Of a DNA stretch of 64,000 bases, positions 37,573 through 43,819 are shown piece after piece (positions within the stretch are counted from its first letter, which is position 1; each line of letters begins with the position of its first letter). The DNA is from Escherichia phage Paul. Where the stretch lies: the sequence record NC_070992.1, one strand, 5' to 3'. The notes under the pieces were generated by a model, which saw only the letters and a program-made list of their open reading frames with translations, was not told the origin of the DNA and did no database searches. The position numbers were made by a program, and so were the translations under genes.

Positions 37573-37581
37573 TATACATTA
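37573..37581 (-). promoter_or_regulatory. TAATGTATA motif, candidate phage-sigma promoter element
   Basis: exact 9-mer on minus strand 60 nt upstream of the SSB ATG; part of the 15-bp palindrome ATGTATAGTATACAT. Confidence 0.45.
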
Positions 37582-40400: not shown

Positions 40401-42245
40401 TTAATGTGTGTGCATCCAGTTAAGCCCAATCTGACAATCAGATGCCAGAGGACATTCCATGTTCAAGTACTCACCAGCCTTCTTAACACAAAGCTCGGTG
40501 TGCTCTTTAAGTTTCTGTACATCATTACGGTTCACTGAGAATTGACCTTCATCATGCATATCAATTACCTTAGCACAACGAACCCCATCCTTCTCAATCC
40601 ACTTGTTAAGGAACATCATAGCATATTTCATAACAACAGCACCGGCACATTGCAGGAGTGTGTTAAGGGCTTTATGAACCATAACTTTACCAGTGGCATC
40701 TCGTCTCATTGTAATCTTACGACCATCAACGCCAATCAAGTATCCCTGAGCAGCCTTTTCTGTCATACGATCAATGAGGATTGCAATACATGGGTTCTCT
40801 GCTAAGAAACGTGCTCGCATCACTGAACCTTCGTCAGCCCCACCACCTACAATTGAACCAAGCTTAGCATCACCAGCACCATAGTTGAATGCATAGATAA
40901 ACGTTTTAGCGTTGTCACGAGTAGGAAGACCAGCAAGTTTCTGGTTGTGAGAGTGAATATCACCTTCAAGGAGGATATCACGATACATAATAGCAGAAGC
41001 TAAACCACGTTCTGCCAGAGCTTTCTTAGCTGGATTATTCTCTTCTATTGCTTCAGCAAGCATGTCCCTACACTCTTTAATGAGGTAGTGTGCAAGCATA
41101 CGCAATTCTAATCCAGAACCATCATACCCCAAGAATACCTCTTTACCAGCGGGTATGTAATATTTGTAAGCACCTACAGGCTTGTCTTTCTTCCCCGGCT
41201 TACCTTTCTCATAAATTACGTTAGTACCTTTTCGTATATAACAACCATCAGGAACAACGTTAGTAATAATGAAAGGACGAGAGTGATCATCATCTGAGTT
41301 ATAGTCAGACTCAAACAGACCGCGACACTCATGACCAAACAAACCACGGGAGGGAATATTAACCACGATACGATGTTTGAATCGAAAAGTCGGCGTAGCG
41401 CAGCTGTTAGCTTCTGCCGAAAGTTTACCATCTTCGCGCTCCTTTGCTATAAGTCCACTAATAAGACCTAGCCTGTGAGCCGCTACAACGCGTCTCTTAA
41501 GCAAACTTCCGACACTCCCTAGCTCACCCCCTAACCCTTCTTCAAGAGTCTCCTCGAGGTTTGTAGGAGCTGTAGGCCACTTGTTTGAGGTAGCTAGTGC
41601 TATCTTAATCTCATCAAAAGTGATAGGTCTACGTCGGTTAGGATTTAAACCTAAACCAAATACATAAGCCTTCATGTAGTTCTTAGTTTTAAACCGAAAA
41701 TGCTTCTCTAAGAACTTTCTAATATCAGCGTCAACCATCTCGGCTGTCTGCTTCTGTTTAGCATTACCTCGCATCCAAGCTGAATACCATGCTTGGTATG
41801 TTCCATACTTCCGCATATCTTTCTTGATTTCAAAAGTATTCCAAGGTTTCTTTGATACGTTAAACTCTGGAGGAAGAAAACCCTCATCCATAAGGGCTTC
41901 TTTAACTCGGGCATCTTTCGATGGGTCAAAGTCTACGTACTCAACACAGGTGAATGCTCCACCAATGTCTTCTCTCTTAAGTCCAACTCTATCACAATAG
42001 GCTTGAGGCCATTTCTGTAAAGCTCCAGACTTCTTAAACGGCTTCATGTAAGTAGAGCCATCTAGTCTCATCTTAGGTAAGAGAGGAATTAATTCTTTGT
42101 CAATATTAACAATAATCTCTTTAAGGAGGTGAACATACCACCGAGCATTTCTTCGGTTGAAACTCACTCCGTGCTTTGCTTGCTTAGAGATTATATCAGC
42201 GACAGTCATCTCTGTCAAAAATGGAAGAGCGTCCGGGTTGCTCAC
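40401..42245 (-). CDS. DNA polymerase, family A polymerase domain only
   Basis: motif A GYDGSGLELR, motif B RDNAKTFIYAFNYGAG, motif C IDMHDE; no 3'-5' exonuclease domain in this ORF. Confidence 0.85.
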   Translation of the reverse strand: MSNPDALPFLTEMTVADIISKQAKHGVSFNRRNARWYVHLLKEIIVNIDKELIPLLPKMRLDGSTYMKPFKKSGALQKWPQAYCDRVGLKREDIGGAFTCVEYVDFDPSKDARVKEALMDEGFLPPEFNVSKKPWNTFEIKKDMRKYGTYQAWYSAWMRGNAKQKQTAEMVDADIRKFLEKHFRFKTKNYMKAYVFGLGLNPNRRRPITFDEIKIALATSNKWPTAPTNLEETLEEGLGGELGSVGSLLKRRVVAAHRLGLISGLIAKEREDGKLSAEANSCATPTFRFKHRIVVNIPSRGLFGHECRGLFESDYNSDDDHSRPFIITNVVPDGCYIRKGTNVIYEKGKPGKKDKPVGAYKYYIPAGKEVFLGYDGSGLELRMLAHYLIKECRDMLAEAIEENNPAKKALAERGLASAIMYRDILLEGDIHSHNQKLAGLPTRDNAKTFIYAFNYGAGDAKLGSIVGGGADEGSVMRARFLAENPCIAILIDRMTEKAAQGYLIGVDGRKITMRRDATGKVMVHKALNTLLQCAGAVVMKYAMMFLNKWIEKDGVRCAKVIDMHDEGQFSVNRNDVQKLKEHTELCVKKAGEYLNMECPLASDCQIGLNWMHTH

Positions 42246-42261
42246 TTTATACTCCTTTAAA

Positions 42262-42684
42262 TTATTGGTAAAGTAAATCTGTAAATGCTTGGTTATCTTC
42301 TATCACATCTAACATGGTAGCTTCGTCACTGTAAGCCCTAACCGTCCCGTTGACAACTGTCCAAGGAGGAGGTGGAGGTGGTGCATGGTTAGCCCTAGCT
42401 TCACGAGGTTGCTCTCGTACTAAATGAGCCACAACCCTTTGATTAGCAACTTCTTCTCTTTCTCGAATAGCTCTTTGGATGTAAGCCAGTTTCATACCCC
42501 AAGCTTCTTCAAATTCTTGAGGGTGTTTATCGCTGATAACCACATACTGACGTTCAGGAATACCAGAGCGAATCTCTGATAATAGTTCATGGAACAGGTC
42601 CAGTTCGTGCTCAGTGAGATTCATTTCAATATCATCCCACTTGAGAACTAGGAAACGGTTTTGGTGTCTAGCTGGTAATGGCAT
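42262..42684 (-). CDS. hypothetical protein with poly-Pro tract (140 aa)
   Basis: ORF; APPPPPPW segment. Confidence 0.4.
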   Translation of the reverse strand: MPLPARHQNRFLVLKWDDIEMNLTEHELDLFHELLSEIRSGIPERQYVVISDKHPQEFEEAWGMKLAYIQRAIREREEVANQRVVAHLVREQPREARANHAPPPPPPWTVVNGTVRAYSDEATMLDVIEDNQAFTDLLYQ

Positions 42685-42847
42685 CCTACTCCACCTCTAC
42701 TTCAATGTAAGTTCTCTCGCCAACATCGTCTTTTAAGACCCATGACTTGGCATCTTCTTCCGACTTAAAAGCTTTCACAACGCTGTATCCACCTTCCCAT
42801 TCATCACCGAACCAGCGCTGTCCTACGTAAATGTATTCTTTCATCAC

Positions 42848-43132
42848 TCAACCTTTCGGGAATGGCATTAAAAATTCTACAGCAGATTTGATTTCGTTAT
42901 TGATTCGTGAATCACGGTAAGAGATAAACTTACCTTTGCTGTCACGTAACATCACATGGGTTCTGGCTGTTTTGTGAGGAAGCAAAGTGATACTGGTTGG
43001 GATAGTATCAATTCCTACAGAGCATGAATTAATAGTCTTACTCTCTACTAGCAGATAAGACCAAGTACGGGGTTTCTGCTCCGGACGGTTGGGGTATGTG
43101 TCTCGAATCTGTACCATAGCTAATTTATTCAT
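42848..43132 (-). CDS. hypothetical protein, paralog family B (94 aa)
   Basis: shares KTARTxVxLR ... GKFISY ... PFPKG with the adjacent gene. Confidence 0.4.
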   Translation of the reverse strand: MNKLAMVQIRDTYPNRPEQKPRTWSYLLVESKTINSCSVGIDTIPTSITLLPHKTARTHVMLRDSKGKFISYRDSRINNEIKSAVEFLMPFPKG

Positions 43133-43133
43133 A

Positions 43134-43388
43134 TTAAACTCCTTTAGGGAATGGGATGAGATTTTCTACTGCAACACGAAAAGATTTTTCTACGTTCTTA
43201 TTCTTATAAGAAATGAATTTACCATCAGCACCACGAAGGATTACATTAGTGCGAGCTGTTTTAGGGTTAATCTCAATCATCCGTTCGATGACCTTGTTTG
43301 ATTTGTTGTGGTGGTTAGTGAAAGTCCACTTAACAATCTTGCCATCTCTGGTTACATCAAAAATATTTACGATTTTTACAATAGACAT
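43134..43388 (-). CDS. hypothetical protein, paralog family B (84 aa)
   Basis: tandem paralog of 42848-43132. Confidence 0.4.
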   Translation of the reverse strand: MSIVKIVNIFDVTRDGKIVKWTFTNHHNKSNKVIERMIEINPKTARTNVILRGADGKFISYKNKNVEKSFRVAVENLIPFPKGV

Positions 43389-43412: not shown

Positions 43413-43440
43413 TGGTTTATATAAAAGAAAAGGCCACCCA
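43413..43440 (-). terminator. intrinsic terminator-like hairpin
   Basis: minus-strand GGCTACCC-AAAT-GGGTGGCC followed by TTTTCTTTT. Confidence 0.45.
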
Positions 43441-43456
43441 TTTGGGTAGCCTCATA

Positions 43457-43774
43457 TTACGATGAGCTTAAAGCTCCTTTGCGTGCTCCAGCTGCTTTTC
43501 CAGCTCGATCACCACTTTTGCCGCCGTTTGAACGGTTTGAGCTGACTGATTCAACACGTAAGTTGCTTGACGCATTAGAACCTCCAGACTTGACAGCTCG
43601 TTTGTGTCCAACGTCTTTACCTCTGACAGCAGCTTTTCCATCGCGCTTTTCAACGATGCGACGTGCACGGTGGCGCTGAGCATCTCCGCTCTTGCTCCCA
43701 ATTCCCGTTTCACCGCGCTTGATCGCAGTTCTTCTTTCTTGTGCATAATCTCTCTTTCCTACATGGTCTGCCAT
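43457..43774 (-). CDS. basic low-complexity protein (105 aa), possible nucleic-acid-binding
   Basis: SD AAGGAG 6 nt upstream of ATG; K/R/G/S-rich; third-position usage matches the genome; flanked by TAATGTATA motif and terminator. Confidence 0.45.
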   Translation of the reverse strand: MADHVGKRDYAQERRTAIKRGETGIGSKSGDAQRHRARRIVEKRDGKAAVRGKDVGHKRAVKSGGSNASSNLRVESVSSNRSNGGKSGDRAGKAAGARKGALSSS

Positions 43775-43810: not shown

Positions 43811-43819
43811 TATACATTA
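43811..43819 (-). promoter_or_regulatory. TAATGTATA motif, candidate phage-sigma promoter element
   Basis: exact 9-mer on minus strand 37 nt upstream of the ATG at 43774. Confidence 0.45.

Follow-up and report, generated by a model that had tools for sequence, protein, structure and literature searches.

Two small genes upstream of the DNA polymerase gene of Escherichia phage Paul are tandem paralogs over their whole length, one of them with a hypervariable cassette

The window analysed here is a stretch of 64,000 nucleotides (nt) from Escherichia phage Paul (NC_070992.1), and our subject is a pair of small adjacent genes on its minus strand, whose open reading frames (ORFs) encode proteins of 84 and 94 amino acids (aa) and are separated by a single base. 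They are the equivalents of phi32_57 and phi32_56 of phage phiEco32, both annotated there as 'hypothetical protein', and we call them gp57 (upstream) and gp56 (downstream). Our analysis shows that gp56 and gp57 are whole-length tandem paralogs made of one small domain, that the C-terminal half of this domain is under strong purifying selection, and that gp57 carries a hypervariable cassette which is exchanged between phages. As to what the proteins do, we lean, tentatively, towards an accessory or binding protein of the replication module, the two paralogs probably acting together. The main features are the following, each with the evidence that defines it (dN/dS being the ratio of nonsynonymous to synonymous change):

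43134..43388, minus strand: upstream paralog, 84 aa, counterpart of gp57 (phi32_57); ORF list, match to phrog_6814, position in phiEco32
42848..43132, minus strand: downstream paralog, 94 aa, counterpart of gp56 (phi32_56); ORF list, match to phrog_6814, nucleotide identity
43263..43355, minus strand: hypervariable cassette of the upstream paralog, codons 12-42 (strand b2, helix a1 and loops); diversity and dN/dS
43137..43262, minus strand: conserved basic C-terminal half of the upstream paralog (K-TARTNV-LRG-DGKFISYK hairpin, helix a2 and L-x-PFP tail); dN/dS and invariant residues
42851..42973, minus strand: conserved C-terminal half of the downstream paralog, residues 54-94; BLASTP and a dN/dS of 0.20

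A sequence-only reading of this DNA had proposed a tandem paralog pair that shares a conserved C-terminal PFPKG box over 50 residues while the N-termini differ, and had seen in this a conserved module with variable specificity regions. Both ORFs lie exactly where it placed them, on the minus strand, and the strings it quoted (KTARTxVxLR, GKFISY and AVExLxPFPKG) are all found. The tandem paralogy is borne out by formal alignment: a single BLASTP comparison aligns residues 43-83 of the 84-aa protein with residues 54-94 of the 94-aa protein at E = 1e-15, with 23/41 identities (56%), 31/41 positives and no gaps, so that the shared C-terminus is significant but spans 41 residues and not 50. The N-terminal halves do indeed show no significant pairwise similarity and have diverged fast; yet a profile-profile comparison, with a P of only 0.023 and thus marginal, aligns them colinearly over strands b1 and b2 (IVKxVxIxD...KWTF against KLAMVQIRD...TWSY).

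That the C-terminal half might be a portable 'PFPKG module' fused to unrelated N-terminal specificity domains is suggested by the limitation of pairwise similarity to the last 41 residues, and by some distant matches that cover only profile positions ~33-86. We nevertheless regard this explanation as very improbable, and as already largely refuted. Both proteins match the hidden Markov model (HMM) of phrog_6814 (PHROGs v4, unknown function) from end to end, the 84-aa protein with residues 1-84 on profile positions 1-86 of 86 (E = 6.5e-36) and the 94-aa protein with residues 1-94 on positions 1-85 of 86 (E = 6.7e-37), and strand b1 with its Asp11 is conserved in all members. In an exhaustive profile search every protein that carries the box is small (55-120 aa) and has it at the C-terminus; no larger or otherwise different protein shows it, and in no case is it fused to another domain. 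The K-G of the box is explained, at least in part, by overlap with a Shine-Dalgarno sequence (see below). Finally, AlphaFold2 models made from family alignments (mean predicted local distance difference test score, pLDDT, of 88.0 and predicted template modelling score, pTM, of 0.75 for the gp57 type; 81.7 and 0.72 for the gp56 type) have the same order of elements, b1-b2-a1-b3-b4-a2-tail, in which b1 is the strand 6-12, b3-b4 is the conserved hairpin and the tail is of lower confidence; only the b1-b2 and b2-a1 loops are longer in the 94-aa protein. With the downstream-type protein of KBNP1711 (92 aa, BFVD model), the gp57 model can moreover be superposed from end to end (template modelling scores, TM, of 0.71/0.66, E = 1e-6). 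Because of the full-length profile matches and the common element order, we conclude that the pair are whole-length paralogs and not a module with unrelated N-termini.

Even the remotest relatives retain the first strand, which ends at a nearly invariant Asp11, and across 43-51 members the invariant or nearly invariant positions are M1, D11, I38, T44-V49, G56, F58, S60, L77 and P79-P81; the remotest relatives keep D11, N48, R52, G56, F58, S60 and P81. In the C-terminal half of upstream-type proteins T44, A45, R46, T47, L51, R52, G56, K57, F58, S60 and Y61 are invariant, and the hairpin motif T-A-R-T-N-V-x-L-R-G-x-D-G-K-F-I-S-Y-K is both invariant and positively charged. The upstream paralog has an isoelectric point (pI) of 10.3 and the downstream paralog one of 9.9. 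None of 164 family sequences has a negatively charged C-terminal half (net charge 0 to +9, median +5); the charge of the N-terminal part ranges from -7 to +6. A basic hairpin with conserved Arg, Lys, Phe and Tyr would be compatible with binding to nucleic acid or to an acidic protein surface.

Variation along the locus is uneven. In an alignment of nine Kuravirus loci, nucleotide diversity is 0.04-0.09 in the DNA polymerase gene, 0.13-0.16 in the first ~30 nt of gp57, 0.43-0.49 in gp57 codons ~12-40 and again 0.12-0.14 in the 3' half of gp57; in gp56 the variation is milder (0.24-0.30 vs 0.13-0.18). Pooled Nei-Gojobori estimates for 16 distinct gp57-type genes give a dN/dS of 0.22 (dS 0.31) for codons 1-11, of 0.40 (dS 1.10) for the cassette (alignment columns 12-45, window codons 12-43) and of 0.08 (dS 0.47) for the C-terminal half. 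A conserved half next to a variable region, as the sequence-only reading had it, thus agrees with the contrast between 0.08 and 0.40, but there is no module joined to different N-termini, and the term 'specificity region' we keep as a hypothesis. Since dS is raised as well and the alleles fall into distinct classes, we see in the cassette old alleles and recombination, not demonstrated positive selection.

In most Kuravirus genomes only 20-54% of the bases of the cassette can be aligned locally, and its flanks are 85-100% identical. The window combines the gp57 cassette of KM01/Bas91 (97-98%) with the gp56 of phiEco32/WFI101126 (96-100%). The gp57 and gp56 alleles assort independently, and the cassette, with its sharp boundaries, is exchanged between phages. 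Its hydrophobic residues W21, F23 and I38 stay conserved, which would fit a stable scaffold with a changing surface.

The window phage is phiEco32-like (genus Kuravirus, subfamily Gordonclarkvirinae), and the surrounding 5 kb are 92-94% identical to 97 records of phiEco32-like coliphages, among them PE006, WFI101126 and phiEco32 itself. By position and high identity the two genes are orthologs of phiEco32 gp57 and gp56: window and phiEco32 share 98-99% of nucleotides in gp56 and 85-89% in gp57 outside the cassette, which is divergent. In phiEco32 the pair is flanked by phi32_58 on one side and by phi32_55/54/53 on the other, phi32_53 being a family-A DNA polymerase annotated as without both exonuclease domains. 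Table S2 of PMC8948821 lists gp56 and gp57 as homologue groups common to the phiEco32 subgroup. As sequences the genes are nothing new, because they are already catalogued as phiEco32 gp56/gp57 and as phrog_6814; the family is in the databases as hypothetical, is confined to phages and is uncharacterised. The literature searched, which did not take in the key phiEco32 papers PMC2587145 and PMC3275717, says nothing specific on gp56 or gp57.

The family is tiny. A word-indexed search of 5.8 billion proteins returned 119 clusters, all of 62-109 aa and none with a Pfam domain, and an exhaustive HMM search of 1.84 billion representatives gave 51 matches at E<=0.001. Four of these (P0133, P0134, P0149 and P0150) are long SH3_3, BRCA2, kinesin and HEAT proteins that reach their scores by summing weak stretches, and we consider them spurious; the others are of 55-120 aa, with the box always C-terminal. 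A relationship to SH3_3 in particular was rejected: P0133 has 1592 aa and 16 SH3_3 repeats and was matched by eight summed weak stretches, the window proteins have no SH3_3 match, and each model has two helices. Pfam DUF5487 (PF17589) was also set aside, as it matches only 3 of 43 members weakly (best E = 0.00094, 18.6 bits against a gathering score of 27; in P0098, residues 25-66 on profile positions 14-55 of 66); neither window protein matches it, and a literature search found no paper that mentions it. One genome each of 185,579 bacterial and archaeal species yielded no close relative, IMG/VR contributed only eight loci, and a search of PDB sequences, with the single proteins and with a 43-sequence profile, gave nothing significant. 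In several GenBank records (XT73, PE006, ES17, DE5, EcoN5, CHD5UKE1 and others) gp56/gp57-type ORFs of 82-94 aa are labelled 'autotransporter adhesin'. We reject this name: the two proteins have only 84-94 aa, Pfam recognises no autotransporter or adhesin domain in them, and the label looks like an error carried over from record to record.

The number of copies differs between genera. Kuravirus phages have two (83-85 aa and 91-94 aa), as have the Suseptimavirus phages SU7, ECBP2, Bas86 and E20-1 (83 and 85 aa), and there is one in EP335 (Nieuwekanaalvirus), one in the Bas92/LAMP clade and one in more distant uncultivated phages; wherever there are two, the spacer between them is 1 nt. A tblastn search with a distant member found 185 places in 97 records, and all 97 records that match the region carry at least one copy; about nine in ten cultured relatives therefore have two, and the family gene appears to be core. 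In a neighbour-joining tree (200 bootstraps, 86 columns and so indicative only), one clade (75%) unites the upstream copies of every genus, and the downstream copies form three separate lineages (Kuravirus, KBNP1711 and Suseptimavirus types) which group with each other or with the upstream copies in 0% of bootstraps. Because the downstream copies make up three lineages that never group together, the tree would point to an old duplication, or to a downstream slot refilled from relatives, and not to a recent duplication in place.

Such a history, and above all the cassette, would also be expected of a host-interaction or anti-defence protein, or of a target sensed by host defences, in which the conserved half has a fixed task, the cassette diversifies by frequency-dependent selection exerted by host immunity and the duplication provides two specificities. 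We think this rather unlikely, although several observations agree with it: the cassette is sharply bounded and its allele classes are shuffled between genomes that are otherwise 93% identical, the downstream slot holds three unrelated lineages, with 0% bootstrap for a clade of the Kuravirus and KBNP types or for one of upstream plus downstream copies, copy number differs between genera, no relative was found in the cellular genomes (185,579 species), and Gordonclarkvirinae are reported to be unusually resistant to restriction-modification with no known inhibitor (PMC11990801). However, the dN/dS of the cassette is 0.40 and not above 1, with dS raised too (1.1), which again speaks for old alleles and recombination; the proteins are basic, unlike the DNA-mimic anti-restriction proteins; the genes lie in the middle/replication cluster behind the promoter P58 (see below) and not in the early host-takeover cluster; and distant homologues keep their place among replication genes.

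This last point brings us to the surroundings of the pair, which in the window contain the following elements:

43811..43819, minus strand: exact promoter element TAATGTATA of the phage sigma factor phi32_gp36, upstream of gp58; pattern search
43457-43774, minus strand: gp58-like gene (phrog_4590), 105 aa; PHROG match
43430..43453, minus strand: terminator-like G+C hairpin followed by TTCTTTT, between gp58 and the upstream paralog; consensus scan
43139..43145, minus strand: AAAGGAG, Shine-Dalgarno of the downstream paralog, within the K-G-V codons of the upstream paralog; sequence
42852..42856, minus strand: AAAGG, Shine-Dalgarno-like element of gp55, within the K-G codons of the downstream paralog; sequence and junction table
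42686-42847, minus strand: gp55; ORF and PHROG match
42262-42684, minus strand: gp54 (phrog_11427); ORF and PHROG match
40401-42245, minus strand: family-A DNA polymerase; ORF and phiEco32 annotation

The replication neighbourhood of the family recurs in three gene orders. In phiEco32-like phages and in uncultivated relatives, the family gene stands between a gp58-like gene (phrog_4590) and a gp54-like gene (phrog_11427) followed by DNA polymerase A; a different phage group (contig L036, E. coli phage PJNS034 and Pantoea phage TacPo2) has a distant member, found at E = 2.3e-9 by the exhaustive search, with the primase/helicase on one side of it and on the other a polymerase exonuclease subunit, which it overlaps; and in locus L019 another distant member is directly upstream of the primase/helicase. 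The 613-aa neighbour in L019 cannot be counted as a DNA polymerase, as its PHROG family bears the name 'S6 glutaminyl transferase'; what links this locus to replication is the primase/helicase. This gene neighbourhood in three orders would suggest a role at the replisome.

The way in which this role would be carried out can be sketched. The basic hairpin and the PFP tail would bind a conserved partner (nucleic acid or a protein of the replisome), and the variable b2/a1 face would tolerate or track a variable interaction; in phages with two copies, the coupled paralogs would probably function jointly, perhaps as a hetero-oligomer that arose from a homo-oligomer. We compared the proteins with two known docking peptides. 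E. coli SSB ends in an acidic tract followed by I-P-F (D-D-D-I-P-F-COOH), and beta-clamp binding peptides follow the consensus QL[SD]LF or QLxLxL. Mimicry of the SSB tip was rejected, since the tail E-N-L-I-P-F-P-K-G-V places Phe 4-5 residues before its end, with Pro and Lys after it, and lacks an acidic tract; only 'PF' is common across the family. Beta-clamp binding was rejected too, the consensus pentapeptide and hexapeptide being absent from both proteins.

Several observations weigh against a replication role and keep our preference for it tentative. Small ORFs of no assigned role are common between the replication genes of lytic phages, so that guilt by association is a weak argument. 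Foldseek found no credible match in the PDB for either model (best E 0.2, TM at most about 0.35), and at the sequence level Pfam gave no match for the 94-aa protein, only matches at E>0.2 for the 84-aa protein (CzcE and Phage_tail_X, far below cut-off) and no consistent family over 43 members, and NCBIfam gave no match. The overall pI is not conserved, some distant members being acidic. The downstream copy is missing in EP335 and Bas92, and is therefore dispensable. Finally, phages 7-11 and GAP52 share gp58, but gp56 and gp57 are not among their shared genes (PMC8948821, Table S2) and a tblastn search found neither gene in these two phages, so that the family is not required by the exonuclease-less type of polymerase. 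It should be stressed that a replication accessory and a host-interaction protein are not mutually exclusive.

The position of the genes also bears on how they are expressed. The phage sigma factor phi32_gp36 recognises the single-element promoter TAATGTATA (PMC8948821), and the match at 43811-43819 corresponds to 'P58' of the supplementary promoter table of that paper; it is the nearest identifiable promoter for the string gp58-57-56-55-54-DNA polymerase. The window contains five exact matches (9987, 27741, 37573 on the minus strand, 37645 on the plus strand and 43811 on the minus strand), of which those at 37573 and 37645 face each other and presumably form a divergent middle/late promoter region; with up to one mismatch there are 23 matches against 18.4 expected from shuffled sequence, which is no excess. 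Terminators are annotated in WFI101126 and SU7 at the place of the hairpin 3' of gp58. A promoter of its own and a hairpin directly after it suggest that gp58 is expressed highly and separately; as no promoter was found between the hairpin and gp57, the string from gp57 to the polymerase is probably read by transcripts that pass the hairpin.

Within this string the genes are packed with spacers of 1-3 nt. The junction of the pair reads CCT AAA GGA GTT TAA T ATG, that is the stop codon TAA, one base and the next ATG, and the last 2-3 codons of each paralog double as the Shine-Dalgarno sequence of the following gene. Across the family the residues after P-F-P vary (KGV, KG, RG, TGA, EA, TVE, NFGA), whereas at most junctions a GGAG/AAGG-like core is retained 5-9 nt ahead of the following ATG; for this reason we take the protein-level motif to be L-x-P-F-P, with 'KG' at least partly a constraint at the nucleotide level. 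Translational coupling joins the two genes to one another and, further along the string, to gp55, gp54 and the DNA polymerase.

Two further explanations start from this arrangement. The proteins could be small nucleic-acid-binding regulators of their own operon, exerting for instance translational or RNA-level control of the DNA polymerase, with the basic hairpin binding RNA or single-stranded DNA. The basic C-terminal half with its conserved aromatics would suit this, as would the position of the genes directly downstream of a hairpin and their tight coupling to the polymerase string. We find it improbable all the same, as there is no likeness to a known RNA- or DNA-binding fold or family, the neighbours are different in PJNS034, TacPo2 and L019, and the variable cassette is left unexplained. 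Alternatively, the ORFs could be dispensable filler, kept mainly because their translation drives the coupled expression downstream; the Shine-Dalgarno embedded in the terminal codons, the 1-3-nt spacers and the loss of the downstream copy in some lineages are what one would then expect. This we hardly credit, however, given strong purifying selection at the amino-acid level (dN/dS 0.08 in the C-terminal half) and the retention of the motif at 30-40% overall identity in distant phages with different neighbours.

Some observations on the neighbouring genes may be recorded here. The string shows presence/absence polymorphism, including at loci L002, L023, L024 and L035: gp55 (52-53 aa) is missing in YF01, SU10, Bas91, 1-6bf and others, and an HNH homing endonuclease or an SU10_055-type ORF lies between gp58 and gp57 in YF01, E20-1, SU10 and WFI101126. 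In the metagenome relatives L003 and L017, endonuclease VII and HNH genes interrupt the family-A DNA polymerase gene that follows the family gene, leaving parts of ~450 aa and ~95 aa. A second diversity hotspot (0.35-0.47) lies in gp54 at about 42283-42432 on the minus strand, around the proline-rich HAPPPPPPW; gp54 homologues in distant relatives have 179-269 aa and match only in their N-terminal ~85-130 residues. The gp58-like protein is very basic and of low complexity. Its +1 frame is open over 96-102 of ~105 codons in all 26 homologues, including those of distant metagenome phages (L001-L035), and in the window is a helical-looking ORF of 92 aa at 43468-43746. Diversity at its three codon positions (0.16/0.11/0.31) and a higher amino-acid identity in frame 0 (0.67-0.91) than in frame +1 (0.34-0.69) show that the annotated frame is the selected one; that the +1 frame is open as well probably follows from the scarcity of T at codon position 2. 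The C-terminus of the gp58-like protein (DVDHIKTIKSGGSNESHNLRIRSASANRS in L006) presumably resembles a degenerate HNH (beta-beta-alpha-Me) motif without cysteines, although it has no Pfam match.

If the role in replication holds, the pair would add a new small accessory protein to the poorly studied replisome of podophages with an exonuclease-less family-A polymerase, and the hypervariable cassette would give a handle on the host factor that it meets; Kuravirus phages are used in phage-therapy work. One may go further and imagine an unrecognised, replisome-associated fold whose b2/a1 surface is engaged in an arms race, as a decoy for or an inhibitor of defences that sense replication proteins, the paralogs forming a heterodimer with two variable faces. 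This is a speculation to which we give little credence; if true, such a factor might help to explain why Gordonclarkvirinae resist restriction and other defences so broadly. More practically, the annotation of gp56 and gp57 should describe them as paralogs of one family over their whole length and drop 'autotransporter adhesin', and the gp57 cassette, a hotspot of recombination and diversity, could serve for typing. The finding is of an ordinary kind, and mildly interesting for its unmatched fold, its bounded cassette, its position by replication genes in three orders and its hidden ribosome-binding site.

How do these proteins compare with known ones? Their element order, b-b-a-b-b-a, recalls that of the protein G/L B1 domains or of the beta-grasp (b-b-a-b-b), but we do not assign them to either, since the matches are not significant (protein L, 1xf5_M and 4hkz_E, and SUMO, 2mp2, at E>0.7, TM 0.25-0.39 and 37-41 columns); against BFVD, Foldseek matched only their own family. 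A generic strand-turn-strand pattern, V-x-L-R-G-x-[DN]-G-x-F-[IV]-S, gives the hairpin a local likeness to a domain of PDB chain 7zoi_A (a deposited glycoside hydrolase of family 18) and to the tail of lamin B1 (7dtg, 3jt0), which has GNVCIEEIDVDGKFIRLKN; both differ in that the likeness covers ~20 residues only, at E 0.04-0.3 and with no Foldseek match, and it is a matter of motif and not of homology. Closer at hand, phiEco32 gp57 has a cassette unlike that of the window (21% locally alignable), whereas the KM01/Bas91 allele is 97-98% identical. The distant members of E. coli phage PJNS034, Pantoea phage TacPo2 and the uncultivated P0117/P0119 groups differ from the window proteins in gene order, in being single-copy, in a tail of the form (A/F)-L-P-x instead of PFP and in an identity of only 24-31%. 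Yet they have ~100 aa, like the window proteins, and share with them the motif of b1 with its D, the hairpin T-x-[RK]-x-N-V-x-x-R-G-x-x-G-[KR]-F-[IV]-S-Y-[KR] and a terminal L/F-P, and they too are embedded among replication genes.

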